IMG/VR virus record: IMGVR_UViG_3300009285_000018
Location: 1 to 45,887 of that record
Reading direction: 5' to 3' (one strand)
Origin: a virus
Length of the DNA stretch: 45,887 bases
Shown: piece by piece, positions 3,763 through 40,569 of the stretch
How the letters are laid out: each line of letters opens with the position of its first letter
How positions within the stretch are numbered: the first letter of the stretch is position 1
Made by a program: the position numbers and the translations under genes
Notes under the pieces: model-generated
Seen by the model: the letters and a program-made list of their open reading frames with translations, nothing else
Database searches by the model: none
Told to the model about the DNA's origin: nothing

Positions 3763-3767
3763 ATTTT

Positions 3768-6165: not shown

Positions 6166-6598
6166 TATGCTTGTAGTGTGGCAAAAGCTGGAAGAAAAAA
6201 AGGATCAATCCCGTGGAATAAGGGTTTAAAAGGAATATACCATATTTGGCCCAATGGTCGTCCTCCTATTAGCGAAGAAACACGCAAGAAAATTGGACTC
6301 TCGGGAATTGGGCGAACTCCATGGAATAAGGGGAAGCCTTATTTTGAGATCCGTGGAGACAGAAATCCTAACTGGAAAGGCGGAATTACTGGAGAGGACC
6401 AAACCTTGAGAAGTAGAATTGAATTCAAGAATTGGAGCAAAACAGTATTTAAAATAAACGATAAGAAGTGTGCGAAATGCGGATCTAAAAAGGATTTAGT
6501 TGCGCATCATAAAAAAAGTTTCAAGAAATATGTTTCTTTACGCTATGATTCTTCAAATGGAATTATCGTATGTCGTAAATGTCACATAAAAATTCATC
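6166..6598 (+). mobile_element. Homing-endonuclease insertion that splits the SNF2 helicase gene
   Basis: About 430 nt separate helicase motif Ia/Ib from motif II and consist almost entirely of the HNH ORF. The two flanking helicase reading frames differ by +1. Confidence 0.7.
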
Positions 6599-6642
6599 AT
6601 GTTTGCGGCCATAATAAGCGACGAAAGTACAAGGATTTCTAA
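6178..6642 (+). CDS. HNH homing endonuclease with NUMOD3-like repeats
   Basis: Repeats GSIPWNKG and GRTPWNKG, plus SEETRKKIGLSGIG. HNH core is CAKCGS...LVAHH...NGIIVCRKCHIKIHH. GTG start. It is in frame with the upstream fragment across a single TGA. Confidence 0.85.
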   Translation: MAKAGRKKGSIPWNKGLKGIYHIWPNGRPPISEETRKKIGLSGIGRTPWNKGKPYFEIRGDRNPNWKGGITGEDQTLRSRIEFKNWSKTVFKINDKKCAKCGSKKDLVAHHKKSFKKYVSLRYDSSNGIIVCRKCHIKIHHVCGHNKRRKYKDF

Positions 6643-11641: not shown

Positions 11642-12706
11642 ATGAAAATTCTAATTACGGGAATTTGTGGATTCATTCCACATCATCTTACGGAACATAT
11701 TATAAAGAATACTGATTGGGAAATAATTGGATTAGATAATTTAACATATGCCTCGAGGGGCTTTGATAGATTGAGAGATATTAAGGTTTACAACGACAAA
11801 AGGGTAAAAATTTTTACCCACGATATTACTCGTCCAATTTCTGAAGAGTTATTAAGAGAAATAGGAGAAGTTGATTATATCTTACATTTAGCAGCAAATA
11901 CCCACGTGGATAACTCCATAATTGACCCTGAGCCCTTTGTAATGACAAATGTGGTTGGAACTATGCATATGCTCGATTTCGCGCGTAAGCAGCTAAATTT
12001 GAAGCATTTTCTCTACTTCTCCACGGACGAGATATTCGGGCCGGCTCCAGTGGAAGTAGCGTATAAAGAGTGGGATCGGTATAACTCCGGCAATCCTTAT
12101 TCTGCGTCAAAGGCTGGCGGAGAGGAGCTTTGTTTGGCATATGCCAATACTTATCATATCCCGATACTCATAACTCACACTATGAATGTTTTTGGAGAAC
12201 GCCAACATCCGGAAAAATTCATACCAAAAGTAATTCGTGCGGCTCTGGACAGCCACATTATTCCAATTCATTCCGATAAAACCAAAACCGTTGCTGGATC
12301 CCGTATGTGGATTCACGCGCGGAATGTGGCAGCTGCGATTCTGCATCTTTTGGAATATACCTCGCACGATTCCAGTATTGTAGTCCCGCGTCCGACCTAT
12401 TGGCGTCCGGAATATGCGGATAAGTTCAATATTGTTGGAGAACGGGAAGTGGATAATCTTGCAATGGCGAAATTGATACATAAGATAGTGATGGAAACGG
12501 TCAAAGAACAACGAACTTTTAAATACGAAATGGTTGATTTCCATTCGAGCCGCCCCGGGCACGATTTGCGTTATGCGCTTGATGGTTCAAAAATGAAAGC
12601 CATGGGGTGGTCGTTACCCATGGGATTTGAAGATTCGTTAAGAAAGACGGTTGAGTGGACCGTCCAAAATCCAAAATGGCTAAATATAATTTCTCAATCC
12701 AAGTAG
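11642..12706 (+). CDS. rmlB: NAD-dependent sugar epimerase/dehydratase, dTDP-glucose 4,6-dehydratase-like
   Basis: Contains ILITGICGFIP (GxxGxxG), STDEIFG and YSASKAGGE (YxxxK). Length is 354 aa. Confidence 0.75.
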   Translation: MKILITGICGFIPHHLTEHIIKNTDWEIIGLDNLTYASRGFDRLRDIKVYNDKRVKIFTHDITRPISEELLREIGEVDYILHLAANTHVDNSIIDPEPFVMTNVVGTMHMLDFARKQLNLKHFLYFSTDEIFGPAPVEVAYKEWDRYNSGNPYSASKAGGEELCLAYANTYHIPILITHTMNVFGERQHPEKFIPKVIRAALDSHIIPIHSDKTKTVAGSRMWIHARNVAAAILHLLEYTSHDSSIVVPRPTYWRPEYADKFNIVGEREVDNLAMAKLIHKIVMETVKEQRTFKYEMVDFHSSRPGHDLRYALDGSKMKAMGWSLPMGFEDSLRKTVEWTVQNPKWLNIISQSK

Positions 12707-16781: not shown

Positions 16782-17228
16782 TTAAGTAACGTGTTTCCAC
16801 GCAACATTATGTAAAATTCTCCAAACATTTGCTTGAGAAACTCCGAATAATTTAGCAATTTCGTATTGAGAATAATTTTCCTTACGATATAGATTTTTTA
16901 TTGTAAAGATATCTTTGTTTTTTAATTTTGCAAGTTTATGGTTTTCGCCCGGAAATGAGTGCCAGCGGCGCTTTTTGACACAGTCCAAAACGTTATCCTG
17001 TTGAGTACCTATAAAAAGGTGTTTTGGATTTACACATTTTCTATTATCGCATTTGTGGAGAACGCACATTCCTTCGGGAATTTTTCCAAAATGAAGCATC
17101 CAAGAAACTCTATGAGCATAATGAGGTTTTTTGGGAAAACGAAAGTAACCATATCCATGACCAGCATTTGCTCCTGTCCAATTCCAACAATTTTTTGTTT
17201 TTTTAATTTTGTTAAAAAAGTTTATCAT
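16782..17228 (-). CDS. free-standing HNH endonuclease (HNH_3-like) with a C-terminal HTH
   Basis: Contains CWNWTG...GYGYF...AHRVSW...CVLHKCDNRKCVNPKHLFIGTQQDN, and the C-terminal segment YEIAKLFGVSQANVWRIL. Confidence 0.8.
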   Translation of the reverse strand: MINFFNKIKKTKNCWNWTGANAGHGYGYFRFPKKPHYAHRVSWMLHFGKIPEGMCVLHKCDNRKCVNPKHLFIGTQQDNVLDCVKKRRWHSFPGENHKLAKLKNKDIFTIKNLYRKENYSQYEIAKLFGVSQANVWRILHNVAWKHVT

Positions 17229-19210: not shown

Positions 19211-20062
19211 TTATGCTACGCCTCCGCCGTCGATATGATAACTCATGTCTTTGGCCGGGCGAGTTGGTTTTTTACGACGCGCAAATAAATCAAATTCGGT
19301 ACTAAGATCGTTGGCCATGGTGCGTAGATTGGTGAAAGAGAAATGTCCCTCGTCCACCGTAGCCGCGCCTTGCGTGGCTATTTTTCCGGCCAGTGACCGG
19401 TAAAATTTCGCCCCGGTAAATTTCTTTACGCCCTCAATCCAGTCGTTTGCAACGTCAAGGGTGGCGGATGTAGCGGTATAAGTTTGCATGTTGCGCAGAT
19501 ATGAAATTGCCAGACGATTGGCGGTGGATGGTTTATTGCCAAGCACCATTTTATTGGCATCCTGTTGATAACTCCAATTTATGCCAAGTTTTCTGAATCC
19601 TCCGGAAACGGTTGCATTATCTGATTCAAGAACTTCATAAAGATCGATACAGGCCGAAGGACCCGAGTAAACCCGCACGTTGGCCGAAATTCGCATTATG
19701 GCCGTATTGCGCACCACTTGCCGGAAAAATCCGCGCGCGTTCATCTCTTCAATTCCTTGATTGATTGCTTCCGCCCAATGCCTGTCGCGCCAATGCGCGT
19801 ATTTATGTTGAGATTTGATAGTTTGAGAAGTGGATGGCGTAAAAAGCGTGGTTAAGTTTCCATTATCGAGATCGTAATTATAACCCGAGTTTTCCACAAG
19901 GGCGCTGGTGTTGCGAAGCACCGTATAACTTCCTTCGATCACGGGAAATTTTCCTACATTAAATACAGTTGAAGATGCGTCTCCGGCCTTGGAAACCTGC
20001 ACGCTTTTGCCTATATCTCCGAATTCGCGGCGGCATTGGGTTATAAGAGCAGATGTAATCAT
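19211..20062 (-). CDS. hypothetical structural protein
   Basis: 283-aa ORF with its own TGATATAAT promoter 6 nt upstream. Confidence 0.45.
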   Translation of the reverse strand: MITSALITQCRREFGDIGKSVQVSKAGDASSTVFNVGKFPVIEGSYTVLRNTSALVENSGYNYDLDNGNLTTLFTPSTSQTIKSQHKYAHWRDRHWAEAINQGIEEMNARGFFRQVVRNTAIMRISANVRVYSGPSACIDLYEVLESDNATVSGGFRKLGINWSYQQDANKMVLGNKPSTANRLAISYLRNMQTYTATSATLDVANDWIEGVKKFTGAKFYRSLAGKIATQGAATVDEGHFSFTNLRTMANDLSTEFDLFARRKKPTRPAKDMSYHIDGGGVA

Positions 20063-20077
20063 AAGTATATTATATCA
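20063..20077 (-). promoter_or_regulatory. extended -10 promoter, TGATATAAT
   Basis: Read on the minus strand: TGATATAAT (20077..20069), N6, ATG (20062). The TGA stop of the upstream gene forms the TGn of the element. Confidence 0.5.
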
Positions 20078-21817
20078 CGAAATAGCCGAGTCATCCATTG
20101 GTTTGGGCCAACTTTGCTCATCCGAATTTAATGGAAGCGGATACAACTGCTGGTCTGACCGCATATATACAAGATTGGTTGCCGGCGGAGTTATGGTAAG
20201 AGTTTTGGATTCTGCCACTGCTACCGCATCACTGACGTTGATATTTCCAAGTTGACCAGTAAATGAAGTTGATTCGGCGATGGCGATGGCGTCGCTCACT
20301 GAAATATTGCCAAGCGCGGTGTTTGTAATCGTTACTGATTCGGCGATGGCGATGGCGTCACTCACTGAAATATTGCCAAGCGCGGTGTTTGTAATCGTTA
20401 TCGATTCGGCGATGGCGATGGCGTCACTCACTGAAATATTGCCAAGCGCGGTGTTTGTAATCGTTATCGATTCGGCAACAGTTACGGAATCCGATACGTT
20501 AATCAAAGACACAAATACCAAATTCACCGATTCGGCGATGGCGATGGCGTCACTCACTGAAATATTGCCAAGCGCGGTGTTTGTAATCGTTATCGATTCG
20601 GCGATGGCGATGGCGTCACTCACTGAAATATTGCCAAGCGCGGTGTTTGTAATCGTTATCGATTCGGCAACAGTTACGGAATCCGATACGTTAATCAAAG
20701 ACACAAATACCAAATTCACCGATTCGGCGATGGCGATGGCGTCACTCACTGAAATATTGCCAAGCGCGGTGTTTGTAATCGTTATCGATTCGGCGATGGC
20801 GATGGCGTCACTGACACTGATGCTGTTTGTGAAAAGAAGAGTAACCGATTCAGCTGTTGCAATCGCGTCGCTCACTGAAATATTGCCAAGCGCGGTGTTT
20901 GTAATCGTTACTGATTCGGCGATGGCCACCGCGTCGTTGACGTTGACGTTGTAAATAAGAGTGATGGTTATAGATTCTGCCACCGTCACGGCATCGCTGA
21001 CGTTGATGTTGTTGTCAAGAATTATAGTATATTCTTCCGTGGTCTGTACCGTAGCGCTGCCATTATTTCCGCCAAAATTTAATCCAGCTGCTTGAGTTCC
21101 AGTTCCACCAATATAAAATCTTGCGGTGCAATTACCTCCCGCCGACCATGATGTTCCGTTATATTCCTCCGTCGTAACTTTAACTCCGCCATTCTGTCCG
21201 CTGAAACTCAACGCGGCATCTTGAAGACCCGCACCGCCCAAACCTCGTCTTGCAACAGCCATATCACCCCCAGCAGACCAAGAAGTGCCGTTATATTCCT
21301 CGGTAGATACAAGATTATCAACTAAATATCCCCCGAAACATAATCCAGCGGTTTGAGTTCCAGCTCCAGCTGTTTGTTGTCTCGCAGTAGTCAAATTACC
21401 TCCAGCCGCCCAAGACGTTCCGTCATATTCTTCAGTAGTTGCAAGTTCGTCTCCTGCAAAACTTAATCCAGCAGTTTGAGTTCCGCATCCACCTCCTCCA
21501 CCTCTGGCAGTACCCAAATTTCCTCCAGCCCCCCAAGCCGCTCCGTCATATTCCTCTGTGGTATTATCGGCTGTACCTCCGCCCGTATATCCTCCAATAC
21601 ATAATCCAGCTGTTTGAGTTCCAGCCCCACTCGTCAAATGTTTTTGTTCTGAAAGGTCGCCTCCAGCCGCCCAAGCAGCGCCATCGTATTCCTCGGTATT
21701 CACATAATTGGTAGTACCAGACCTCCCTCCAAATCCAAGTCCCGCGGTCTGGGTGCCAGCTCCGCCCATCCCCTGTCTCGCTGTTGCTATATTACCTCCA
21801 GCTGTCCAAGCTCCCAT
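20075..21817 (-). CDS. tail fibre with an N-terminal Kelch-like beta-propeller repeat domain and a C-terminal tandem-repeat shaft
   Basis: About six ~45-aa blades follow the pattern TEEYDG..W..GG.L..AR....G.GTQTAGL.FGG. These are followed by about 14 units of 20-22 aa, ITNTALGNISVSDAIAIAES. Confidence 0.65.
   Translation of the reverse strand: MGAWTAGGNIATARQGMGGAGTQTAGLGFGGRSGTTNYVNTEEYDGAAWAAGGDLSEQKHLTSGAGTQTAGLCIGGYTGGGTADNTTEEYDGAAWGAGGNLGTARGGGGGCGTQTAGLSFAGDELATTEEYDGTSWAAGGNLTTARQQTAGAGTQTAGLCFGGYLVDNLVSTEEYNGTSWSAGGDMAVARRGLGGAGLQDAALSFSGQNGGVKVTTEEYNGTSWSAGGNCTARFYIGGTGTQAAGLNFGGNNGSATVQTTEEYTIILDNNINVSDAVTVAESITITLIYNVNVNDAVAIAESVTITNTALGNISVSDAIATAESVTLLFTNSISVSDAIAIAESITITNTALGNISVSDAIAIAESVNLVFVSLINVSDSVTVAESITITNTALGNISVSDAIAIAESITITNTALGNISVSDAIAIAESVNLVFVSLINVSDSVTVAESITITNTALGNISVSDAIAIAESITITNTALGNISVSDAIAIAESVTITNTALGNISVSDAIAIAESTSFTGQLGNINVSDAVAVAESKTLTITPPATNLVYMRSDQQLYPLPLNSDEQSWPKPMDDSAIS
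20280..20921. repeat. In-frame tandem DNA repeats inside the fibre gene: 66-bp units and a perfect 192-bp higher-order duplication
   Basis: 66-bp units begin at 20280, 20346, 20412, 20538, 20604, 20730 and 20856. The blocks 20346..20537 and 20538..20729 read identically. Confidence 0.85.
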
Positions 21818-22575: not shown

Positions 22576-22800
22576 TCAAAAAGACGCGGCAGTTAAACTT
22601 CCTGTGTTGTTGGGGGTTGGGGGGATGGCAAAACGAGTGGTCGAAATAATGTCCGCGAAAGATGGAAAGAATTTCTCAACCGGAAAGAGTATTTTTTTAA
22701 TAGAAAATCCGCGCCTTGGCTTTTGTGGCTGATTGTCTGAAACTTTTACAGTTTCAGACACAAGTATAGAAAGAGTTTTTGGCTCAACCGATTTTTTCAT
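22576..22800 (-). CDS. hypothetical small protein
   Basis: 74-aa ORF on the same strand as its neighbours. Confidence 0.4.
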   Translation of the reverse strand: MKKSVEPKTLSILVSETVKVSDNQPQKPRRGFSIKKILFPVEKFFPSFADIISTTRFAIPPTPNNTGSLTAASF

Positions 22801-22987
22801 GGGTGTTAATAGTTTCTCCTACTCTTACTTCAATGGTTTGTTGCCGGCAACGCGGACATTCATCGAAACAAATCGGACACCATCCGCTCCGGCACTCTGG
22901 ACACCATTCTCCTTTCATTTTACCACACTTTTCACACATATCAAAATCCGAGGGTTTTGGGATCTTGCAGTGGAAACTGCCGCCCAT
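22784..22987 (-). CDS. small cysteine-rich zinc-finger protein
   Basis: CEKCGKMKGEWCPECRSGWCPICFDECPRCRQ contains four CxxC pairs. I used the ATG at 22987; the track start is a TTG. Confidence 0.45.
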   Translation of the reverse strand: MGGSFHCKIPKPSDFDMCEKCGKMKGEWCPECRSGWCPICFDECPRCRQQTIEVRVGETINTHEKIG

Positions 22988-23744
22988 TCTCGTCAATATG
23001 CTTTACGAATATATTTGTGTCTATAAGAAAAGGATACTTCATTTTTTGGTATTTCGTCCAGCCGGCCTTCTCAAAAAATTTATCCTTTATAACCCGGTCG
23101 CACCATGCCAAATCCGAAGTTCCGGAGACCAAATGGAAGCTGCCGGTTTCGGGATCAAGCCATTTTTTTTCCGGCATCTCAAACACCCGGCGCGTGCGTT
23201 CCCCTCCAACCATATATTCCGAACTTTCTTCCCACATGGCTTTTAAAATAGAGCAGTGGATCAAAAGGCATCCGGTCGGCGCGCCATCAACCCACACCAA
23301 GTCCCCCATTTTCCAGTCCTGATAAAATGATTTTCCCCGACCACGATACACCAAAGGCTCGGGTGGATTTGATTTTGTAAAATAAAGTCCGGATACTACC
23401 GGCACCTTGCCGTCGCGCATATATTTGTTCAGGCGTACGAATGCGTCCGGTGGCAATAGATTGTCCGATTCAACCAAAAGCAGCCATTCCATTTCTTTTT
23501 CTATGGCGGCCCGCACAATCAAATTCTGCGCGTCAGCCACAAGATAACGGAGCGGCGCAAAGGTGGAAATCCATTGAATCATGTCAGTTGCGGACCAGTT
23601 GGTCGGAATAATTTGTCCGTAGCGCGCCATCACCCATTCCATACGTACTGTGCCGGTCGAAGGCGTGCCAATCAAAAGCCGGTTGGTCCATGGACCCTTA
23701 TTTTCAAGGATCAGATTGTTTTCCATTTTGAGAAGTTTACTCAT
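22941..23744 (-). CDS. GT-A fold glycosyltransferase (family 2-like)
   Basis: Contains LLLVESDNLLPPDAF (a DxD-like motif), VVSGLYF and PTGCLLIHCSIL. Confidence 0.55.
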   Translation of the reverse strand: MSKLLKMENNLILENKGPWTNRLLIGTPSTGTVRMEWVMARYGQIIPTNWSATDMIQWISTFAPLRYLVADAQNLIVRAAIEKEMEWLLLVESDNLLPPDAFVRLNKYMRDGKVPVVSGLYFTKSNPPEPLVYRGRGKSFYQDWKMGDLVWVDGAPTGCLLIHCSILKAMWEESSEYMVGGERTRRVFEMPEKKWLDPETGSFHLVSGTSDLAWCDRVIKDKFFEKAGWTKYQKMKYPFLIDTNIFVKHIDENGRQFPLQDPKTLGF

Positions 23745-24261
23745 AATATGATGAATCTTCTTTACGCTTCTCTAAAACAACTTCCATGTTTCCGTTTAAA
23801 TGCCATGTGTTGACAAGAATTTTCCATGGTTTCGGTTTATAAATTTTGTAAAGTCCCTGTCCCAAAGGATCAAAATAATCCCACGTGGATTCGTTACACG
23901 GATTGCAGTGCGTGGGATCTTGAAAATATCCATGGGAGCCGGCGTAGGGCGTAGAAATCATGAATTTACCCCCATATTTGAGTACGCGCCACACCTCATC
24001 CATAAAGCGCAAAAACACCCCGCCATGCGGGTTTATATGCTCAACAAGGTGCGATGCTATGGCTAAATAAGCGCAACGGTCAGGAAGAGGCCAAGGGAAG
24101 CGTTCTACATCGTGCGCAACATCCACCCCGGGAAGTTTACGGTTATCAAGACCAACAAAATCAGGCTGCTTATTGGCGCCGCATCCAATATCTAATTTTA
24201 TCCCTTGATCGTGTTTCCGCAATAAAGCGGCAATCAAAGGACTCATCTTTTCTTTACTCAT
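23737..24261 (-). CDS. class I SAM-dependent methyltransferase
   Basis: Contains motif I LDIGCG, and LKYGGKFMISTP. There is no DPPY/NPPY motif, so it is not an obvious DNA N6-methyltransferase. Confidence 0.7.
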   Translation of the reverse strand: MSKEKMSPLIAALLRKHDQGIKLDIGCGANKQPDFVGLDNRKLPGVDVAHDVERFPWPLPDRCAYLAIASHLVEHINPHGGVFLRFMDEVWRVLKYGGKFMISTPYAGSHGYFQDPTHCNPCNESTWDYFDPLGQGLYKIYKPKPWKILVNTWHLNGNMEVVLEKRKEDSSYYE

Positions 24262-24265
24262 CTTT

Positions 24266-24757
24266 TTAAGAAAATTGGATTTGATATGTCACGTTGACAT
24301 TCTGATTGGTCGCACAGGAACTGGAAGTATAAGTGTTACCGGAAAAAAGCGTGGCATTGGTTGAAGTCGTATTAAAAAGTCCGACATTGGAAAGATTCAC
24401 CGATGCGGTAACGAAAGAATCGGAACTTGCGAAAGCCGCGGTAAATTGAAGTGTTTTAGAAGACGTAATTGAGGTTGATCCGGTTTTGCGTTGCGTGGAT
24501 GACATTATTTCGCCAGCCAATCCGGTTTCAGCGGCTAAGGGCGCGCCACCCGTTCCAAGCGCGATATGAGTAATAGTTTTGGCTCCCGATGCGCCAGCAA
24601 GACCCTTGCAAAGATAATCTTGAAATCCAAGATTTACAACTAAATTTTTTACCCAGCCGGAATCTCCCGCAATTTTTTCCATACTTTTTACGTTCGGCTC
24701 GGAGATTTGAAGCCGGAAAAATCCGTGAACTTTGATCGTGTCTTTATTTTTTGTCAT
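24266..24757 (-). CDS. hypothetical Ser/Thr-rich protein
   Basis: The internal ATG (MTKNKDTIKVHG) was chosen. The C-terminal half is rich in S, T and N (NTTSTNATLFSGNTYTSSS). Confidence 0.45.
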   Translation of the reverse strand: MTKNKDTIKVHGFFRLQISEPNVKSMEKIAGDSGWVKNLVVNLGFQDYLCKGLAGASGAKTITHIALGTGGAPLAAETGLAGEIMSSTQRKTGSTSITSSKTLQFTAAFASSDSFVTASVNLSNVGLFNTTSTNATLFSGNTYTSSSCATNQNVNVTYQIQFS

Positions 24758-24758
24758 A

Positions 24759-25037
24759 CTATTCAAGTACCAGATATGCAACATTAGCGGTCCCAAGAAC
24801 CTTAACGTGCATACCTTTAGTAAATTTATGATCTACGTGATAGATTTCCGACCTTTTGGGGGCGGCGCTTGGCACCACGGCATAAAAAACAACATCGCCG
24901 GATGCGTTTCCATCACGAATTTTTACGGTAGCGTTAGCCGCCGAGGGCGTAATCAGTACGCCTTTAAGGCGAACCTGTTGAGTTGTAGGAATGGTTTGCT
25001 TTCCAACCGTTCCTGAGATTGCAACTTCGAGTAACAT
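24759..25037 (-). CDS. hypothetical small protein, beta-rich
   Basis: 92-aa ORF with its own TGATATAAT promoter. Confidence 0.45.
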   Translation of the reverse strand: MLLEVAISGTVGKQTIPTTQQVRLKGVLITPSAANATVKIRDGNASGDVVFYAVVPSAAPKRSEIYHVDHKFTKGMHVKVLGTANVAYLVLE

Positions 25038-25055
25038 AGTAATTGTATTATATCA
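25038..25055 (-). promoter_or_regulatory. extended -10 promoter, TGATATAAT
   Basis: Read on the minus strand: TGATATAAT (25055..25047), N9, ATG (25037). It shares the 12-mer CGTGATATAATA with the promoter at 20069..20080. Confidence 0.5.
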
Positions 25056-26148
25056 CGGTTCTTTTTACTCGCGCAAGGGCTGTCCTTGCGAGAATTTGAG
25101 AATACACTTCAAAGATTTTTTGAGCATTGTCTTGAATCCAGTGTTTTGAAATCCATTCTTTATTGTGTCGCGCCATCTCCCTCCGTTTGTTCGGATGATC
25201 CACAAGTTCTATAAGCATATTATACCACTCTTCATAAGTATTCGCCAAAAGCGCATGAACCCCGTTATCCACAGCCTCCTTGTAGGGTATCACGTTTGAC
25301 GCCACAATCGGTATCTGAGCCGCCGCGTATTCCTTGATTTTAAGGTCTGATTTACAGTTCCCGAATGAATTATTGATAACCGGCGCCACCGCTATATCCC
25401 ATCCTTTGGAACAAAGCACTTGTGGATAAATTTCAATCGGTTCTCCGGGATCATTCCGCAACTCACCCTCGAATCCACAGGCCGGACAAACTTGATTTAG
25501 TACATTCAAATTAAATACTCCTCCAAGTTCCTGATGCGTCATCCCCATTGTTTCAAACCGGATATTCGGTTTGCGCTCTTTCACAATTCGCTCGATGACT
25601 TTTGAAATCATCTTTAAGTCGTCCGCATGCGCATTGCCACCCATCCAACCAATTCTAATTTTTCCATCGGCTGGCTTGATTATCGGATTGTCCCATAAAT
25701 CTTTATTTAGATAGTTCGGCACAACGTAAATGAACGGATTGTATGGAAAATATTCACGGGCGAGTTGCGGAGTGGAAACCGTGACGCCGGCCGCGACTTT
25801 CGTCATCTCCATCGCGCGATGCACATAAAGCGTTCCCGGATTCCACGCCGGAAATCCCCAAACATTTCGTGGAGATACATGATGCACAAAATCATCAATT
25901 TCAGTAATGAAAGGAATTTTATGGAATAAAAGTTTGTGTAATATTTTTGTGGCATTTTCGCTTCCCATCTCCTGCATCACCACAAGATCCGCGGCATTTA
26001 ACTGGTCATCAGTCGGCATTTGCATAACAATTTCGGTTTCAGCAAGACCCATACGTTTAATAAAAGTTGCTGGTTGCTTACAGCGGAAGTAGCCACATCC
26101 GCCGTCATCTCGAACTACATATAAAATTTTAGGAATTTTATTCGTCAT
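25048..26148 (-). CDS. GT-B fold glycosyltransferase (family 1/4-like)
   Basis: C-terminal IPIVASNVIPYKEAVDNGVHALL resembles the GT4 E-x7-E region. Length is 366 aa. Confidence 0.6.
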   Translation of the reverse strand: MTNKIPKILYVVRDDGGCGYFRCKQPATFIKRMGLAETEIVMQMPTDDQLNAADLVVMQEMGSENATKILHKLLFHKIPFITEIDDFVHHVSPRNVWGFPAWNPGTLYVHRAMEMTKVAAGVTVSTPQLAREYFPYNPFIYVVPNYLNKDLWDNPIIKPADGKIRIGWMGGNAHADDLKMISKVIERIVKERKPNIRFETMGMTHQELGGVFNLNVLNQVCPACGFEGELRNDPGEPIEIYPQVLCSKGWDIAVAPVINNSFGNCKSDLKIKEYAAAQIPIVASNVIPYKEAVDNGVHALLANTYEEWYNMLIELVDHPNKRREMARHNKEWISKHWIQDNAQKIFEVYSQILARTALARVKRTVI

Positions 26149-26603
26149 TTTATGGCTTCGATTACAAGTTCGTAGGGATTTTTTTCAAACTCATTTGGCA
26201 CGCTGTCAAACCAAATAATTTGTTTCTCACCGGCAAATCCCGCGGCCGAAAGATAACGGATCAAACTATCGCGTGTCATATATATCGCGTGTGTAAATTC
26301 CCGGTTGAATGAATCGATGTCTATTCCTCCACCCACGAACTCACGGCATAAAACTTCAAAATCGTCCACCTTAATCCACAATTTTCCTCCCGGCTTCAAA
26401 CATCGATACCAATTCACAAGAACCTCGCCCACTTCTTCGAGGAAATAACGGTCAAGCACATGGAACGAATAAATCGCATCAATGCTGTTTTCCCGAAAAC
26501 CAAGTTTTTTTAAATCATATAAAATATCAACCTCCGGACCGGGTTGGTTCCAGACCGTAGTGACGTTCGGAACTATTCGAGTTGGGCTAAGTTGAATTTT
26601 CAT
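26145..26603 (-). CDS. SAM-dependent methyltransferase-like protein (Methyltransf_11-type)
   Basis: Contains LKPGGKLWIKVDD and a short class I fold. Motif I is not obvious. Confidence 0.45.
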   Translation of the reverse strand: MKIQLSPTRIVPNVTTVWNQPGPEVDILYDLKKLGFRENSIDAIYSFHVLDRYFLEEVGEVLVNWYRCLKPGGKLWIKVDDFEVLCREFVGGGIDIDSFNREFTHAIYMTRDSLIRYLSAAGFAGEKQIIWFDSVPNEFEKNPYELVIEAIK

Positions 26604-27370
26604 AATTGACCGTAGGGTTGTGATTCCAAACTAAATCCGCGACCCCTGTCTTTCCATAAAACAAGTTTATTTCCGAAATCCGAGAGGTACTCTTTATGGA
26701 TCGCCTTTCCCTTCCTTTGACGCCACTTATCGGCATATTTGGGCCAATATTTAATATAGTAATCACAGGTTTTTTCCCACGCTTCAATACTGAATCCTTT
26801 TCCGAAATGTTTGATATCTCCATGCACCGGAATCTGTATTCCGGGTTCAAGCGTAACTTCACGCTGATCCGGAAGATGGTATTTCAAATATGGCGAGTTC
26901 CGGAAAAAGAATACTATCGTACGGAATTCGGGACCAAACCATTGCCGCTCTTTATATGATTTTTCAGAATCTTCGGGTGTAATATGCGCATCATACAAAC
27001 GGCAAGCAATCGCCTTAATGTTCGGGTCCAAAAACAGTCCGTATTCAGTGAAATTATAAATATGCTCGTCGGCGTCAAAATATACGAACCAATCATCCGG
27101 CCCGGCAAACTGTTGCGCCCGAGCGAGTACCATTTGCCGGTTGAACCAATCGGATTTTTCTCTGTCCGGATCCCAAAACGAACCCTCAATTACTTCCTTT
27201 ACTGCTGGATGGGATCGCGCAATTTCCACCGTTCGATCCGTGGATACGTCATCATAAACATAGATTCCTTCGGTACAAAAAGATTTCCAATTATCCAGCG
27301 TATCTTTTAGGATCGCTTCTTCGTTACGGACCTTGGTAAGTCCCCTGATTTTAGGAAGTTCATGAAACAT
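26600..27370 (-). CDS. family 2 glycosyltransferase
   Basis: Contains VRNEEAIL, YVYDDVSTDRTVEIA (compare the DDGSTD motif) and FDADE. Confidence 0.65.
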   Translation of the reverse strand: MFHELPKIRGLTKVRNEEAILKDTLDNWKSFCTEGIYVYDDVSTDRTVEIARSHPAVKEVIEGSFWDPDREKSDWFNRQMVLARAQQFAGPDDWFVYFDADEHIYNFTEYGLFLDPNIKAIACRLYDAHITPEDSEKSYKERQWFGPEFRTIVFFFRNSPYLKYHLPDQREVTLEPGIQIPVHGDIKHFGKGFSIEAWEKTCDYYIKYWPKYADKWRQRKGKAIHKEYLSDFGNKLVLWKDRGRGFSLESQPYGQL

Positions 27371-28400
27371 CTTTAGCTCTGCGATATGGCCTTAATTCCG
27401 ATTCGACTGCAACCGGACCTTCAACTAACTCTTTAGCAATCCGCAAAAAACTTTCTGCCGCTATCACCGCATTATGTTCACGTTTGACGTAGTTTTTCCC
27501 CCACTCAATCGTTTCCGGATTGTAATATCGATCAATCTCCGCAATCAATTCTTCCGGAGTCATTAAAACATTTCCAGAATTCCGGCCGGAGAAATTGGCG
27601 TATTTAATTGCTTGAATATTGTCTTCACGTACTATGCCGGCCGTTCCCCAACGCCCATGCACCACCCCAATCCGTCCAGCCGCAATTCCCTCAAGAACAC
27701 TCCGTCCCATTCCCACCACAATATCCGAGTCCTCAATCGCGCGAGTAACGTCAAAAGCCGAACTGAAATTCATTCCTATTGCTGCGAGCGTGGCTCCGTA
27801 ATGTTTAGCAACCGTGCGTATAATTTCAACTTCGGAGTCGTTTTTCAAATTATAGTTTGAATTAAATAAAATCTGTTTCGGTTTATTTTCGGTAATTTGA
27901 CGCTTCAAATTGAATCGCTCGCAATCAATGAAATTCCGGATGATAGCGGAATCGATATTGTAATCCTGCTTTAATTTTTCCTGCACCTCTTCCGACACCG
28001 AAACGAATTGATTCACTCCTGCGGAAAGAGACGGATGCTCCGGCGCTTTTTCTCCATTTTCCAAAAAGTGCATTGTGCCATGAACCACGCAAATTATCGG
28101 AGTTTTAGGATAGCGCAACCGGAGGTACTCAACAATATGATGATGTGCCGCAATAATCACGTCGTATTCGTGGCTTACTTTTTCCTCCAAGACATACGAA
28201 AATGGGCGCGCGTCTTCCAGATCAAAATTATTGTAGGAACGGATATCTTTTTTCTCAAGTTCATGCGAAATAACCCCGAGATCGGGGCTGAAACATACCA
28301 CATAGTGTCCCATCTTTTTTAATTCGGTCGCGAGAGTAAAAATCCACGTTTCACTTCCCGCAAGCATGGCAAGCGAATTGTTGCCAAGAAGTATTCTCAT
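27360..28400 (-). CDS. GT-B fold glycosyltransferase (family 4-like)
   Basis: Contains MRILLGNNSLAMLAGSETW and GMGRSVLEGIAAGRIGVV. Confidence 0.6.
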   Translation of the reverse strand: MRILLGNNSLAMLAGSETWIFTLATELKKMGHYVVCFSPDLGVISHELEKKDIRSYNNFDLEDARPFSYVLEEKVSHEYDVIIAAHHHIVEYLRLRYPKTPIICVVHGTMHFLENGEKAPEHPSLSAGVNQFVSVSEEVQEKLKQDYNIDSAIIRNFIDCERFNLKRQITENKPKQILFNSNYNLKNDSEVEIIRTVAKHYGATLAAIGMNFSSAFDVTRAIEDSDIVVGMGRSVLEGIAAGRIGVVHGRWGTAGIVREDNIQAIKYANFSGRNSGNVLMTPEELIAEIDRYYNPETIEWGKNYVKREHNAVIAAESFLRIAKELVEGPVAVESELRPYRRAKDVS

Positions 28401-28428
28401 CTTTTTTTTATTTATTTGCTATATGAGA

Positions 28429-28469: not shown

Positions 28470-29135
28470 TTAAACTTGAACGTAGGCCACGTAATTTACG
28501 TTACCCGATCTTACCGTTTTCAGATAAATATTGGTCGAAGTTGAAGCAGAAGCCTGTGATACAAATACGCCTTGTGCAGATACGCCCTTCGCCATATCAA
28601 TAATATTCGCATGTGAGGCTTTCATTTGCACAATCACAAATTTCGGCGTTGTAGCAAGACCATGAGCAACCGCCACAACACCACTCAAAAGTCCTGAAAT
28701 CGTTCCGGAAAGATACGCAGCAAACAGTTTGGCGGACGTAACCGCCCGAGCACTGATCGCCCCGGCGCGAATCGCATTCGCTTTGATGTTGGTGTTGCCA
28801 ACAGCCGATACGCCTATCTTTGCCGAAGTTACCTGAGCTGCGGAAATTGCTCCTTTACGAATCGCGTTTACGGCAATATTCGTATTCTGCACGGCGCTTA
28901 CTCCTATCTTTGCCGAAATAACTGCTGCGGCAGCGAGTTTTATGCTCGTTACGGCTCCAGTTCCGATCTTCGCTGAAGTAATAGCACCCGCCGCTACTTC
29001 CGCGGCAAGTACAGTCCCGTCAGCAATATGAGCGGACGTAACAACGGCTGACTGAATATTGGCTCCATAGATCAGCGCCCCTTTTGAGAACGCTGGACTA
29101 TAAGCCGAGATTGCTTGTCCTCTTGAAGCTGGCAT
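28470..29135 (-). CDS. Ala/Ser/Thr-rich repeat protein (head decoration or fibre candidate)
   Basis: A ~33-aa unit occurs twice: VTSAKIGVSAV.NTNI..NAIR.GAISA. Shorter A.AITSAKIG periodicity is also present. The gene lies directly after the capsid gene. Confidence 0.45.
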   Translation of the reverse strand: MPASRGQAISAYSPAFSKGALIYGANIQSAVVTSAHIADGTVLAAEVAAGAITSAKIGTGAVTSIKLAAAAVISAKIGVSAVQNTNIAVNAIRKGAISAAQVTSAKIGVSAVGNTNIKANAIRAGAISARAVTSAKLFAAYLSGTISGLLSGVVAVAHGLATTPKFVIVQMKASHANIIDMAKGVSAQGVFVSQASASTSTNIYLKTVRSGNVNYVAYVQV

Positions 29136-29204: not shown

Positions 29205-30371
29205 TTACGGCTTAAGATTAAAATGATAAGCGGCTGCGTCTCCATTACGGACCTCCATCGTGTATTCACCAACGATCTGCCAATCATTCGAGTCGCCGGT
29301 CTTCCCCAATTTTTCAAGGAAGAAAGCGCGACCTTTCAAAGGCATGATTTTCACCTTTGAAGAATCAAATACTACCGCAACATCGTTCGGCACCCAGCGG
29401 TCAACAATAACTTTCAAGTTGATTCCAAGGTCCGAAACAAACTCTTCTACGGTATAGCCCGCACGTCGAGAATCAAGAGTAGTGCGTCGAAATTCTGAAT
29501 CAAAAGCGGAAATTTTCTGCTTCTGCACGCCTCCCACAAGAATAGTGTCCGGCATAAGCCCGTCATCCCAACAGTTCTTAATCATTGTGTTCAAAACCGA
29601 GGGGATAAGAGTTTCTGCGGTACCACTGTTGTTGTTCGTGGAAGGAATAAATCCTACGAACTCGATTAGCCCGCCCATGTTGTTGTAAACGGTAGCACTT
29701 ACGTCTCCGATACGAACACCCATGATTGCGGTGCGATCAAGTTCCCTTTTGAGTTCACGAAGACGAAGATCAATTTGGTAATCGTCTTCCGATGAAATTC
29801 CGGCATGATCAATCGAGGACGCGGTGCCGGTAACTTTCACACCTTTCGAGAAAATCTGCGTGAAGTTATGAACCAATGATCGAGTTGTCGATTCATCTGC
29901 CGGACCCGCCATGCCCTGCGGACGAGGATGCGCGATTATTTCCCACGTAGCGCCCGCCCCATGAGTTTGAGCCGAAGTACCTCCGGCTCCTCGATTTACA
30001 GTACATGAAGTGCTGGAGACAGCTGTAACTTGGACCACTTCTGTTTTTCCTGAAAGTTTGTTTTTCAGCAAAGTACCCGCCGTGATCTTGGAACGAGTAA
30101 TATGAGACGAAGACAAACGAAGAACAGTTCCGGTGGTGTTCCCGAGCGCCATCTGCGCTGCGGTGCCTCCGGACTGAACTGCGGTTGTCGCGTTCAGCGC
30201 GTCTTCTACCCAAGAATGCTTAGTCTGTGTTGCGACTTCGTTCGAGATACCCATCATCGATACGAAATCTGTGTCATCCAAAAGGATGGCAGCCAAAACC
30301 TCCGAGAGGTCCAACTTATAGACTGCACTTTGGTCAAACGACGCGGCTTGGGTTGGATCTGCTAATGCCAT
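29205..30371 (-). CDS. major capsid protein candidate
   Basis: 388-aa ORF directly downstream of the scaffold-like gene and followed by a strong hairpin. The call rests on size and position only. Confidence 0.6.
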   Translation of the reverse strand: MALADPTQAASFDQSAVYKLDLSEVLAAILLDDTDFVSMMGISNEVATQTKHSWVEDALNATTAVQSGGTAAQMALGNTTGTVLRLSSSHITRSKITAGTLLKNKLSGKTEVVQVTAVSSTSCTVNRGAGGTSAQTHGAGATWEIIAHPRPQGMAGPADESTTRSLVHNFTQIFSKGVKVTGTASSIDHAGISSEDDYQIDLRLRELKRELDRTAIMGVRIGDVSATVYNNMGGLIEFVGFIPSTNNNSGTAETLIPSVLNTMIKNCWDDGLMPDTILVGGVQKQKISAFDSEFRRTTLDSRRAGYTVEEFVSDLGINLKVIVDRWVPNDVAVVFDSSKVKIMPLKGRAFFLEKLGKTGDSNDWQIVGEYTMEVRNGDAAAYHFNLKP

Positions 30372-30390
30372 AAATTTAAAAACGAATTAA

Positions 30391-31110
30391 CTACTTTTTA
30401 AATCCCTTCTGTTTCAACGCATTTCTCAGAATAGCCCGAGATCGCGCCACACCAGTCAATTTAGAGGTGTCTTCAAAAACCCCTGAATCAACTGGGGCCG
30501 GACTTCCGGCGCCAACAGTAGGGGGAGTTTCATGGCCTGCCGGCTGACTGGGCTGACTATTCCCACCCGCCGAATTGCCACTATTGCCCGGAGCAGAAAG
30601 TCCCGCGACTTCTTCCCGAACAAAATCCTCTATATCCAATAATGCCTCCTCGACATTATCGGCTTCACTCAACATATGCGGGTTTTTCAGGATCAAATTC
30701 TTGGTCGATTGCGGAAGTTTCGCATACTCGGATTTGGCGAGTATCGATCCTACTCCCACACTAACCTCGGCTTTTAGAACCTTTCGCTCTGCCTCTATGC
30801 GGGCATCCTGTTCCCTATGGAGAGCTTCCACAAGTTCAGGATCATCGCCTGCGGCGCCAGTCGCCGGAGGAGTCGAAGGATTATTGCGCGAACGCGTAAA
30901 TCCTTTACGCTTCTCGAACGCCTGCTGACGAGCATGATCACGCGTGAGGATGCGATATTCCTCTGCGGAGATGGTTACTGCTCCTTGCTGATTCCCCTGT
31001 GCCCCTTCTTGTGGAGGAGTCGAGGAATTTGCAGGAGGAGTACCTGCACCTTGCTCGTTGCCTCCGGGGTTGGCCGCTTGCGCGGGGGTGGCCGGATTTG
31101 AGGTTGTCAT
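30391..31110 (-). CDS. scaffolding protein candidate
   Basis: Low-complexity P/A/G/Q-rich N-terminus, a charged helical middle and a position upstream of the capsid gene. The start is placed at 31110 because the promoter lies inside the longer track ORF. Confidence 0.55.
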   Translation of the reverse strand: MTTSNPATPAQAANPGGNEQGAGTPPANSSTPPQEGAQGNQQGAVTISAEEYRILTRDHARQQAFEKRKGFTRSRNNPSTPPATGAAGDDPELVEALHREQDARIEAERKVLKAEVSVGVGSILAKSEYAKLPQSTKNLILKNPHMLSEADNVEEALLDIEDFVREEVAGLSAPGNSGNSAGGNSQPSQPAGHETPPTVGAGSPAPVDSGVFEDTSKLTGVARSRAILRNALKQKGFKK

Positions 31111-40515: not shown

Positions 40516-40569
40516 AGTCAATTATATTATACTACCAAATCCGCTTCTCTGGTATATCGATTATCCTCA
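40516..40569 (-). promoter_or_regulatory. TAGTATAAT promoter of the portal gene, with an 8/9 DnaA-box-like site in inverted orientation
   Basis: Read on the minus strand: TAGTATAAT (40534..40526), N10, ATG (40515). The terL TAG stop is part of the element. TTATCCTCA lies on the plus strand at 40561..40569, 26 nt upstream of the promoter element. Confidence 0.45.

Follow-up and report, generated by a model that had tools for sequence, protein, structure and literature searches.

The window, the whole 45,887-nucleotide stretch of DNA that was analysed, is the complete genome of an uncultured phage, ~45.8 kb long with a 77-nt terminal overlap. Positions 22941-28400 hold eight co-oriented genes, all on the minus strand and all where a previous sequence-only reading had placed them; they are as tightly packed as it claimed, with intergenic gaps of -11, -4, -4, +10, +1, +4 and -8 nt (Table 1). 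The cluster encodes a GT4 glycosyltransferase (GT), a GT2-like enzyme (GTA2), a methyltransferase (MT)-like protein (MT2), a GT1-like enzyme, two small proteins (one of 92 aa, the other termed small176), the methyltransferase MT1 and the GT-A enzyme GTA1, and is flanked by an SU10-type capsid gene on one side and by fibre and adaptor genes on the other. No transmembrane-grade hydrophobic segment was found in any of its enzymes. It divides into an accessory set specific to the clade and a conserved triad of much wider occurrence. Homing endonucleases are frequent around the region.

Table 1. Coordinates of the cluster genes and of related features in the window, with the evidence for each assignment.
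Position (strand)	Feature	Place	Evidence
11642..12706 (+)	dTDP-glucose 4,6-dehydratase (RmlB)		PDB 1g1a, 1.7e-50; TIGR01181, 1.6e-71
19211..20062 (-)	SU10 adaptor-like protein		PF24175, E 3.9e-4, below cut-off
20075..21817 (-)	Fibre protein	downstream of cluster	phrog_27227, 7e-44
22784..22939 (-)	Possible Cys-rich ORF, 51 aa, four CxxC	right after GTA1	ORF list; putative
22941..23744 (-)	GTA1, predicted GT-A-fold, GT25-like glycosyltransferase, 267 aa	third, most conserved gene of triad	AlphaFold2 (AF2) + Foldseek
23737..24261 (-)	MT1, class I SAM methyltransferase, 174 aa	second gene of triad	Methyltransf_11, E 4.2e-4; phrog_6636 methyltransferase, E 7e-8
24266..24757 (-)	small176, predicted tail-collar-fibre/fibre-adaptor-like virion protein, 163 aa	first gene of triad	AF2 + Foldseek
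24759..25037 (-)	Conserved 92-aa protein		no family assigned
25048..26148 (-)	GT-B glycosyltransferase, GT1/GT4-like, 366 aa		Glyco_trans_1_4, E 5.9e-6; phrog_7162, E 1.7e-41
26145..26603 (-)	MT2, class I methyltransferase-like, 152 aa		Methyltransf_11, E 6.4e-9, profile positions 36-95 only
26600..27370 (-)	GTA2, GT-A glycosyltransferase, GT2-like, 256 aa, DAD motif		Pfam Glyco_tranf_2_4, E 1.1e-9
27360..28400 (-)	GT-B glycosyltransferase, family GT4, 346 aa	first gene of cluster	Pfam Glyco_transf_4, E 5.5e-15
28470..29135 (-)	Repeat protein, 221 aa, about 21 pentapeptide-like repeats		PHROG tail-fibre families, 1.8e-11
29205..30371 (-)	SU10-type major capsid protein	two genes upstream of cluster	PF17236, E 7.3e-69

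Both GT-B genes proposed earlier belong to the accessory set and were confirmed by profile searches. The GT4 enzyme has same-position homologs in the relatives L003 and L004 (54-58% identity) and also in L100-L104. The GT1/GT4-like enzyme, for which the Glyco_trans_1_4 match falls exactly on the Pfam cut-off, belongs to a PHROG glycosyltransferase family (phrog_7162), matches the C-terminal region of MshA (3.7e-7) and has distant homologs within GT/MT cassettes of other phages. GTA2 is 67-70% identical in relatives, and its sole named matches are weak ones to GmaR (0.078) and SunS (0.005), both protein- or peptide-directed GT2 enzymes. In a homolog alignment, the glycine-rich SAM motif I of MT2 is absent in all seven clade genomes, with ELS-P where DxGxG is expected, and by its sequence MT2 is possibly non-catalytic or non-canonical. 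Within the clade, no cluster gene is better conserved than that of the 92-aa protein (69-79% identity in L003 and L004); its tblastn matches are confined to close clade members, and no significant family match was obtained.

The triad follows the order small176, MT1, GTA1, the stop of MT1 overlapping the start of GTA1 by 8 nt. MT1 has an intact motif I (DIGCG), and its profile matches the methyltransferase 3dli in the PDB (1.2e-5). The claim of two class I methyltransferases stands for MT1 but is qualified for MT2 by its missing motif I, while DPPY/NPPY motifs are, as previously noted, absent from both. GTA1 is not recognizable as a GT by sequence: its Pfam match has an E of 0.087, and single-sequence and profile searches of the PDB found nothing. 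Its AlphaFold2 model (pLDDT 73, pTM 0.75), however, shows a GT-A fold, and Foldseek relates it to STIV A197 (E 2e-6) and human COLGALT1 (5e-5), as well as to LH3 and Mimivirus R699. Visible only by structure, GTA1 thus appears to be a GT-A enzyme of the GT25-like type, nearest to STIV A197 and the collagen O-glycosyltransferases, and carries an invariant E92-x-D94. Two GT-A genes had been proposed; Pfam bears this out for GTA2, the predicted fold for GTA1. STIV A197 is an essential viral GT with a proposed role in capsid glycosylation (PMC10551542); COLGALT1 and LH3 are protein O-glycosyltransferases.

For small176, the start of which was set to the ATG at 24755-24757, Foldseek comparison of the AF2 model (pLDDT 75) with the PDB returned the Sf14 neck, the Bas63 connector, the GP4 fibre-tail adaptor and A511 gp105, and comparison with BFVD, where the best match reached E 5e-8, returned tail-collar fibre, tail fibre and minor tail proteins, which points to a virion-type structural protein. 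The GTA1 and small176 models are both of moderate confidence (pLDDT 73-75). Whereas both small proteins had been described as Ser/Thr-rich, this holds for small176, which is Ser/Thr/Asn-rich with about 24% Ser/Thr, and not for the 92-aa protein (14%). The small176 family alignment has a mean column identity of 70% and conserved sequons at N121-L-S (29/32), N129-T-T (24/32) and N155-V-T (32/32), and the protein is a candidate acceptor.

Linkage within the triad extends far beyond this genome. MT1 and GTA1 are present downstream of small176 in 59 of the 60 testable viral loci (small176-seeded, with at least 2.5 kb downstream), and in 80 IMG/VR loci seeded with GTA1, MT1 and small176 nearly always lie upstream of it. 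Metagenomes hold 2155 protein clusters of GTA1 homologs, with 1508 representatives at the 50% level, and no member of the family occurs among 50,697 GenBank phages; triad-holding MAG bins belong to very different phyla with different envelopes. Natural MT1-GTA1 (P0254; domain E-values 6e-65 and 2.6e-108) and GT2-GTA1 fusion proteins indicate that the activities belong to one pathway. Elsewhere, insertions inside the triad include extra MTs (eight times), RmlB (three loci), a sulfotransferase and GT2. Inteins are usually found in strongly constrained proteins, and in P0250, P0258 and P0255 they occupy the two most conserved motifs of GTA1. Together with the intact state of the cluster genes (48-73% identical across relatives) and a triad identity of ~55% between phages with capsids only ~25% identical, this points to strong purifying selection.

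Six of the seven ~45 kb clade genomes keep the cluster order and position even where HNH, Amidase_2 and further genes have been inserted, and the accessory cassette upstream of the triad differs between relatives. A census by Pfam, covering 134 ORFs upstream of the triad at 14 other loci, yielded GT2 (seven), SU10_MCP (six), MT families, GT1/GT4 and epimerase; the layout, running from major capsid protein through a variable GT/MT cassette and the triad to the fibres, is thus a general one. In L004 the four accessory enzymes are present but the triad is missing, so that the two layers can function apart.

The downstream fibre protein joins an N-terminal Kelch-like propeller, a domain that turns up near the triad in many loci, to C-terminal 22-aa tandem repeats (TRF period 66, 10.2 copies), and the adaptor-like protein is 59-61% identical in L003 and L004. 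For the putative Cys-rich ORF there was no Pfam match; small ORFs of 47-86 aa also follow GTA1 in L005, L007 and L102-L104. The repeat protein next to the capsid gene, earlier taken for an Ala/Ser/Thr repeat protein and a possible substrate, is a pentapeptide-repeat solenoid rather than a mucin-like tract, with a strict 5-residue period and with its repeats preceded by a conserved N-terminus and followed by a C-terminal domain (weak pentapeptide matches: HetL, 0.006; Np275/276, 0.12). Its homologs in relatives measure 104, 152, 167, 185, 229 and 241 aa, the repeat number varying freely and independently of the enzymes, and a role as substrate finds no specific support. It probably serves as a fibre of the head or tail or as a decoration protein.

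The dTDP-glucose 4,6-dehydratase-like gene noted away from the cluster was verified as RmlB, with a TIGR01181 score below the equivalog cut-off, and lies in the early/middle region. Homologs occur in the relatives L026 and L102, and elsewhere directly upstream of GTA1 (L055/L057) or between small176 and GTA1 (L067). RmlB would supply a 4-keto-6-deoxyhexose nucleotide sugar.

Che8 gp110 and Corndog gp38 are essential virion GTs of mycobacteriophages (PMC12363180) and are assigned to Pfam GT25. GTA1 resembles them as a GT25-like enzyme by structure, whereas its sequence likeness to these proven virion GTs is marginal: a seven-sequence search gave 13 bits, and hhalign of the GTA1 profile against both aligned their catalytic core at a probability of 28% (P 6e-4). 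The Che8 and Corndog systems use the same enzyme classes as the present cluster: they also hold GT2 enzymes and sugar O-MTs, in one case fused (GT2-MT), and the Corndog glycosylation genes likewise lie inside the structural operon. Unlike Che8 and Corndog, which use a TylF-type sugar O-MT, the present phage has in MT1 a generic Methyltransf_11 enzyme, which could methylate protein instead.

On the basis of these results, we regard virion glycosylation with methylated sugars as the best explanation of the cluster, and as a modestly probable one. The sequence-only reading had proposed virion decoration, possibly with methylated deoxy-hexoses, from the late-operon position, which tells timing and not target. 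This best-supported reading is strengthened by the same position in six of seven clade genomes, the GT25-like GTA1, the triad linkage and the occurrence of RmlB inside the triad. The results themselves establish gene content, families and folds, the packing and position of the operon, its conservation, the fusions and the lack of DNA-modification genes; that the acceptor belongs to the virion, which protein serves, what the sugars are and that the methyl group goes on sugar and not on protein are inferred.

Lipid-linked polysaccharide pathways that rely on host enzymes for initiation and export are just as typical a setting for soluble GT4 and GT2 enzymes. The enzymes might accordingly act late in infection on lipid- or wall-linked O-antigen, capsule, teichoic acid or S-layer glycan, and could, with host initiating transferases and exporters, mask receptors on debris or neighbours, block superinfection or aid release. 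O-antigen and capsule loci typically combine GT4, GT2 and GT1 enzymes with MTs and RmlB, soluble GTs are able to work at the membrane face, Pfam annotates GT25 as an LPS-biosynthesis family, and the accessory cassette is hypervariable between relatives, like surface-polysaccharide loci. However, no flippase, polymerase, GtrA/B, initiating phosphoglycosyl transferase or membrane protein appears in the cluster or in the rest of the complete genome; the virion operon, not a moron or lysogeny module, holds the cluster, and no integrase was seen; the core enzymes nearly always accompany a structural protein of the virion; and a host-specific acceptor is hard to square with GTs ~55% identical across hosts with such different envelopes. 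We consider such remodelling of the host envelope unlikely.

Still less probable is a non-virion protein target, be it a non-structural protein of the phage or a flagellin, pilin, translation factor or defence factor of the host, modified for takeover or anti-defence. The protein O-glycosyltransferases among the structural neighbours of GTA1 and a 'GT4 in conflict systems' family in the upstream census fit this idea, as do the GmaR and SunS matches of GTA2, although the latter are weak (E 0.005-0.08). Takeover genes are normally early, whereas this cluster has capsid genes on one side and tail genes on the other, and the presence of four GTs speaks for an oligosaccharide more than for one inactivating sugar; nor would this reading explain the close linkage to a tail-collar-like protein.

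We give little credence to a product unrelated to the virion, be it a glycosylated small molecule or a glycoconjugate that is free or bound to lipid, or to largely decaying cargo. The lost SAM motif of MT2 and the homing endonucleases would fit; the purifying selection suggested by intact genes, triad identity and intein positions argues against this, and the genome lacks biosynthetic genes for an aglycone. DNA hypermodification, in which the GTs would glycosylate hydroxymethylated bases to evade restriction, is effectively excluded because the complete genome lacks a thymidylate-synthase-like hydroxymethylase (the sole 'thymidylate synthase' PHROG match falls inside the TerL intein), a TET/JBP dioxygenase, a DNA cytosine MTase and a dNMP kinase; neither MT1 nor MT2 has a DNA-MTase motif, the cluster lies outside the replication module, and RmlB-derived 6-deoxyhexoses are not known as DNA modifications. 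In favour of DNA hypermodification are the classical role of phage GTs as DNA glucosyltransferases and the GT/MT combination in 5hmC glycosylation systems described in a preprint (bioRxiv 10.1101/2023.12.21.572611).

Virion glycosylation would then proceed as follows. Late in infection, a cytoplasmic phage system would equip at least one surface protein of the virion with a methylated glycan that probably contains a 6-deoxyhexose, with RmlB feeding dTDP-4-keto-6-deoxyglucose into the pathway. In the core layer, GTA1 would attach a sugar to a virion protein, for which the adjacent small176, the downstream fibre and a capsid or decoration protein are candidates, and MT1 would methylate the sugar; the accessory layer (GT4, GT2-like, MT-like without SAM loop and GT1-like; 25048-28400) may extend or vary the glycan. 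The triad that would form this core is common to thousands of uncultured phages.

The first and last 77 nt of the window are identical, and this exact terminal overlap shows that it is a complete genome, assembled as a circle and about 45,810 bp long (see the table). On the minus strand, the late region encodes, in order, the large terminase subunit with its LAGLIDADG intein, an SPP1-type portal, three large proteins, a scaffold-like protein and the SU10-type major capsid protein (MCP), followed by a 221-aa repeat protein, the eight genes of the cluster, a 245-aa protein, a 580-aa fibre, an SU10-adaptor-like protein and a 660-aa tail protein. All eight cluster ORFs are present as first read. 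They lie between the MCP gene and the fibre and adaptor genes with intergenic gaps of -11 to +10 nt, and none of their products contains a hydrophobic segment of transmembrane grade. A promoter scan of the cluster returned 21 promoter-like sites compared with 21.4 in shuffled sequence, that is, no excess. The late genes are preceded by A/T-rich leaders without Shine-Dalgarno-like sequences, a hint that the host seldom relies on such signals. The last three genes, encoding a 163-aa collar-like protein (small176), a methyltransferase (MT1) and a GT-A-type glycosyltransferase (GTA1), are referred to as the triad.

Features of the viral genome, with positions in the window
Feature	Position (nt)	Strand	Family match or detail
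Terminal overlap	1-77 = 45811-45887		exact, 77 nt
Cu-oxidase_4/YfiH ('laccase domain') homolog	3561-4496	+	E 2.4e-45
SNF2-family helicase gene	5551-7627	+	ORFs 5551-6165 and 6599-7627
HNH/NUMOD3 homing-endonuclease ORF	6178-6642		
dTDP-glucose 4,6-dehydratase (RmlB)	11642-12706	+	
HNH_3 homing-type ORF	16782-17228		
Fibre protein	20075-21817	-	N-terminus, phrog_27227, E 7e-44
Repeat tract in fibre gene	20271-20926		period 66 nt, 10.2 copies
Terminator-like hairpin	22590-22570		
Possible 51-aa ORF	22784-22939	-	four CxxC pairs
GTA1	22941-23744	-	GT-A fold (predicted)
MT1	23737-24261	-	Methyltransf_11-type
small176 (163 aa)	24266-24757	-	
92-aa protein		-	
GT-B glycosyltransferase	25048-26148	-	GT1-like
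MT2	26145-26603	-	Methyltransf_11-type
GT-A glycosyltransferase	26600-27370	-	GT2-like
GT-B glycosyltransferase	27360-28400	-	GT4
A/T-rich leaders (examples)	28401-28422; 30372-30393		
Repeat protein (221 aa)	28470-29135	-	
MCP	29205-30371	-	PF17236, E 7e-69
1288-aa protein	31914-35780	-	
Terminase large subunit	40532-43354	-	phrog_2, E 4e-13

Several features outside the cluster deserve mention. The terminase intein of about 360 residues extends from C229 to N588, directly after a Walker-B-like YDE motif; a PHROG 'thymidylate synthase' match of this protein (phrog_85, residues 227-340), considered as a candidate hydroxymethylase, falls inside the intein and was discarded. An HNH/NUMOD3 ORF splits the helicase gene in two, a second homing-type ORF lies among the tail genes, and the laccase-domain homolog in the early region is unusual phage cargo. 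The 1288-aa protein, whose gene separates the scaffold gene from the portal-proximal genes, is only 26-32% identical in close relatives, matches nothing in Pfam or PHROG and may be an internal or ejection protein. The fibre protein starts with six Kelch-like blades and ends in about ten 22-aa repeats, whose coding tract includes a 192-nt duplication of 100% identity; its Kelch-like domain is found again near the triad in many unrelated loci. The possible 51-aa ORF directly after the GTA1 stop codon is zinc-ribbon-like, and relatives likewise carry small ORFs downstream of GTA1.

The sequence-only reading had assigned four glycosyltransferases and two class I methyltransferases to the cluster. 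Pfam and PHROGs place both GT-B enzymes and the GT2-like GT-A enzyme in families consistent with these folds, and sequence searches also support the identity of RmlB. NCBIfam holds no specific name for any cluster protein, and single-sequence searches of the PDB with the four glycosyltransferases gave nothing significant. The two methyltransferases are of the same Pfam type, but only MT1 keeps the D[IL]G[CG]G motif; MT2 is devoid of the glycine-rich SAM-binding motif. As determined by alignment of the window with six relatives, motif I (E/DxGxGxG) of MT2 is replaced by ELS-P, and the Pfam match covers only the C-terminal 60% of the model. All seven genomes of the clade (the window, L003, L004 and the L100-L104 set) have lost the motif, and yet MT2 remains 48-50% identical among them; it may serve the glycosylation cluster as an adaptor or be a pseudoenzyme. 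From the dTDP-L-rhamnose pathway (RmlABCD), RmlB is the only one of four enzymes encoded in the genome; the host would need to supply RmlA, RmlC and RmlD, unless the 4-keto-6-deoxy intermediate is used otherwise. The two small ORFs had both been described as Ser/Thr-rich, a description that fits the 163-aa protein but not the 92-aa protein. Likewise, the supposed Ala/Ser/Thr repeat protein downstream of the MCP gene repeats strictly every five residues, with weak similarity to pentapeptide repeats, and its homologs vary from 104 to 241 aa by gain or loss of repeats. It is probably a fibrous or solenoid virion protein and not a mucin-like acceptor tract.

GTA1 cannot be classified by sequence, as Pfam, including GT25, gives no direct match. 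Because profiles of the GTA1 and small176 families also retrieved nothing significant from the PDB, we turned to fold prediction for both proteins, which yielded AlphaFold2 models of moderate confidence. The GTA1 model, built with 32 homologs, displays a GT-A fold (pLDDT 73, pTM 0.75), and all nine Foldseek matches in the PDB at E <= 1e-3 are GT-A enzymes, namely STIV A197, COLGALT1 and deposited glycosyltransferase structures. The best match is STIV A197 (2c0n; E 2.1e-6, TM 0.46/0.61, 16% identity), followed by COLGALT1 (GT25; 5e-5) and then LH3 and Mimivirus R699 (range 5e-5 to 3e-3). Furthermore, E92 and D94, which form an ExD variant of the DxD-type metal-binding motif, are invariant in the 32 homologs. 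The GT-A assignment of the first reading holds at the level of the fold, and the model predicts a GT-A glycosyltransferase that is GT25-like by fold. Inteins usually reside at conserved sites of strongly constrained proteins; among metagenomic GTA1-family proteins they are found at the G|C(T)LIH motif (P0250 and P0258), at the ExD motif (P0255) and, within MT1, at QKDPTHC. Natural fusions also occur: MT1 and GTA1 are joined in P0254 (domain E-values 6e-65 and about 3e-108) and in P0269, which carries an intein in its methyltransferase part, and a GT2-like domain precedes GTA1 in P0244, P0246 and P0249.

The small176 model (pLDDT 75) matches neck, connector and fibre-adaptor parts of solved phage particles and also the N-terminal domains of entries whose annotation reads tail-collar fibre, tail fibre or minor tail protein. 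The predicted structure thus points to a tail-collar-like virion protein, and its Ser/Thr/Asn-rich segment forms the structured C-terminal part. Three sequons recur across 32 homologs (N121-L-S in 29, N129-T-T in 24 and N155-V-T in all 32); they could be a matter of chance in an Asn/Ser/Thr-rich beta protein or mark sites of modification. A 142-aa protein at the corresponding position of the relative L004 was considered as a divergent homolog without the Ser/Thr-rich part and rejected (hhalign probability 0.1%).

The GTA1 family comprises 2155 homolog clusters in a metagenomic protein collection; the best 120 of these are at least 59% identical, and none of the 120 has a Pfam assignment. Screening 1.84 billion cluster representatives exhaustively with an HMM retrieved 1508 at E <= 1e-3. 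With GTA1 as seed, 80 IMG/VR loci were compared; where the sequence extends far enough, MT1 and small176 almost always precede GTA1 directly and in an unchanged order. With small176 as seed instead, 60 loci had a downstream stretch of 2.5 kb or more, and in 59 of them both MT1 and GTA1 follow on the strand of small176 (median offset, 679 nt); since the two sets share contigs, they are not independent samples. Genes inserted within the triad elsewhere encode homing endonucleases (ten cases), extra class I methyltransferases (eight), a sulfotransferase and a GT2 enzyme, and RmlB homologs accompany three of the GTA1 loci. In 16 loci whose SU10-type capsid protein is only about 25% identical to that of the window, GTA1, MT1 and small176 are 57%, 56% and 52% identical, while in L003, with a capsid 89% identical, GTA1 again reaches 57%. 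The triad hence evolves independently of the capsid, a sign that the module is exchanged or, alternatively, that divergence is saturated under strong constraint. MAG bins were rejected as a guide to the host: contigs with the triad fall into Saccharibacteria (three), Shapirobacteria, Gemmatales, Aquaspirillum, Caldilinea, Gemmatimonadota and an Omnitrophota SAG, a spread that is too scattered and probably reflects binning noise. Several CPR bins are among those holding the triad, as is the Omnitrophota SAG.

No GenBank phage matched the region at the DNA level, and tblastn of GT4, small176 and GTA1 against 50,697 GenBank phage records was equally negative, so that there is no cultured relative for comparison; the best cultured capsid match to the MCP is 33% identical. 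The metagenomic relatives (L003, L004, L100/L101, L102, L103 and L104) comprise some with capsids 74-89% identical to that of the window and others reached via GTA1 homologs. Within this clade the order is MCP, repeat protein, GT4, GT2-like, MT2, GT1-like, 92-aa protein, 163-aa protein, MT1, GTA1, variable fibres and adaptor. It is complete in six of the seven genomes, window included, with occasional inserts (HNH, Amidase_2 or an extra methyltransferase); L004 is missing the last three genes of the cluster. Between capsid gene and triad, lineages differ widely: L008 encodes six glycosyltransferases and five methyltransferases, and L005 a TPR-GT1 protein, an epimerase and a GT2 enzyme. Among 134 ORFs upstream of the triad in 14 loci, GT2, methyltransferase, GT1 and GT4 families dominate, along with SU10-type capsids; ORFs in the loci were called by a crude procedure. 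Several E-values of this analysis derive from very small search sets. A different modification cassette lies directly after the capsid gene of the unrelated, uncultured Manatee Spring podovirus (L001, MW202801.1; 5142-10173) and encodes a radical-SAM-like oxidoreductase, a glycosyltransferase, a PhyH dioxygenase, a methyltransferase, a NodB-like deacetylase and a second glycosyltransferase. In Streptomyces phage KimJongPhill (L002), a UDP-glucose dehydrogenase, a methyltransferase and a glycosyltransferase are encoded just upstream of the terminase. Our literature search found no earlier description of the triad or of glycosyltransferase cassettes in SU10-like uncultured phages.

The nearest known parallels come from mycobacteriophages. 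According to PMC12363180 and PMC12619734, which cite Freeman et al. (2023, Cell Host Microbe), Che8, Corndog and Myrna use soluble glycosyltransferases of their own to O-glycosylate subunits of the capsid and tail tube, and Che8 gp110 and Corndog gp38 are described as essential (PMC12363180). For comparison with Che8 gp108-110, Corndog gp35-38 and Myrna, the Che8 and Corndog genes were retrieved. Che8 gp110 and Corndog gp38 belong to Pfam GT25, Che8 gp109 and Corndog gp37 are GT2-like, Che8 gp108 is a GT2-TylF methyltransferase fusion and Corndog gp35 a TylF-type methyltransferase. These phages and the window share GT2 enzyme(s) and SAM methyltransferase(s); the small GT25-type GT-A enzyme of Che8 and Corndog has its candidate counterpart in GTA1, GT25-like by predicted fold. 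Corndog genes 35-38 are part of the structural operon, flanked by portal and protease; the cluster of the window likewise lies among structural genes, whereas Che8 genes 108-110 occupy the right genome end. In its enzyme classes, for GTA1 by predicted fold, and in the way it is placed in the genome, the system of the window therefore corresponds to theirs. The GTA1 profile picks gp110 out of a set of just seven Che8/Corndog proteins, and in a weak hhalign alignment with gp110/gp38 (probability 28%, P 6e-4) the catalytic cores correspond (WLLLVESDN...PVVSGLYF versus WLVVLEDDA...PVVSLYL); blastp of GTA1 against the Che8/Corndog proteins gave nothing below E 0.2. The systems differ in methyltransferase type (Methyltransf_11 versus TylF), in the two GT-B enzymes present only in the window and in the almost constant linkage of its core enzymes to a tail-collar-like protein. 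Moreover, the window represents an uncultured, SU10-like podovirus-type phage, in contrast to the actinobacteriophage siphoviruses or myoviruses Che8, Corndog and Myrna, and its MCP ends in ...AAAYHFNLKP without a Ser/Thr-rich C-terminal extension to act as acceptor. On sequence grounds, the system cannot be called a homologous member of the Che8/Corndog type.

More distant systems offer parallels in fold or logic. STIV A197, the known structure that GTA1 matches best, is an essential, minimal viral GT-A enzyme proposed to glycosylate the MCP in the cytoplasm with host nucleotide sugars (PMC10551542). STIV is, however, an archaeal virus of another realm, its acceptor itself is only proposed, and neither a methyltransferase nor a collar-like protein is encoded alongside. 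The chlorovirus PBCV-1 uses a virus-encoded cytoplasmic pathway to attach a methylated, rhamnose-containing (6-deoxyhexose) glycan to its capsid protein, N-linked at non-canonical sites; its A064R combines two glycosyltransferases and a methyltransferase in one protein, and its nucleotide-sugar enzymes are virus-encoded. The MT1-GTA1 and GT2-GTA1 fusions and the phage RmlB follow a logic like that of this eukaryotic giant virus. COLGALT1, LH3 and R699 share the GT-A fold with GTA1 at 12-13% identity and TM values of about 0.35-0.4; enzymes of the COLGALT1/LH3 type are protein-directed O-glycosyltransferases, and the window encodes neither collagen-like Gly-X-Y repeats nor a lysyl hydroxylase.

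Taken together, the cluster is real, and its interpretation as a machinery for virion modification is plausible and strengthened by the analysis; on balance, we lean towards a virion protein glycosylation system. The acceptor could be the collar-like protein, the fibre or a capsid/decoration protein. Remodelling of host envelope glycans is an unlikely alternative: soluble GT4, GT2 and GT25 enzymes do also act on lipid-linked intermediates, but this explanation does not account for a virion protein being linked to the enzymes almost without exception, for their position within the structural operon or for the absence of any membrane component. Gtr systems require the flippase GtrA, the bactoprenol glycosyltransferase GtrB and a serotype-specific membrane glycosyltransferase and lie in lysogeny modules, and neither Gtr-type families nor an integrase was found in the genome. 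A protein target outside the virion, which has no specific support, is also unlikely. Glycosylation of phage DNA bases is effectively excluded, as enzymes of the T4 alpha/beta-GT type need hydroxymethylated DNA, and the complete genome encodes no enzyme able to make such a base, be it a dCMP/dUMP hydroxymethylase or a DNA C5-methyltransferase plus TET/JBP.

What virion glycosylation would gain from this analysis is, judged from gene content, a putative widespread three-gene core beside a variable glycan cassette. More tentatively, the triad might constitute an undescribed, horizontally mobile core for virion glycosylation, composed of a tail-collar-like acceptor, a dedicated methyltransferase and a GT25-like glycosyltransferase and common to thousands of uncultured phages of many environments, with the glycan diversified by adjoining lineage-specific, hypervariable glycosyltransferase/methyltransferase cassettes, as O-antigen loci do for bacterial surfaces. 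In the parts of the literature covered, experimental proof of phage-encoded virion glycosylation is confined to a few actinobacteriophages, whose recognition by antibodies it changes (PMC12363180, PMC12619734). If the proposal is true, virion glycosylation would be common among environmental phages and not peculiar to that group, and phage particles would bear glycan 'serotypes' that adjust how they adsorb, how stable they are or how they escape host surface defences. With a glycosyltransferase family of 2155 clusters that has no cultured representative, the triad could provide a recognisable signature for the annotation of viromes, and as a unit of structural protein, methyltransferase and glycosyltransferase it could serve site-specific protein glycosylation or the engineering of phage surfaces. 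The variability of the cassette between capsid gene and triad suggests that the glycans of the phage surface are under diversifying selection, which, if so, would add an extra axis to phage-host and phage-environment interactions.
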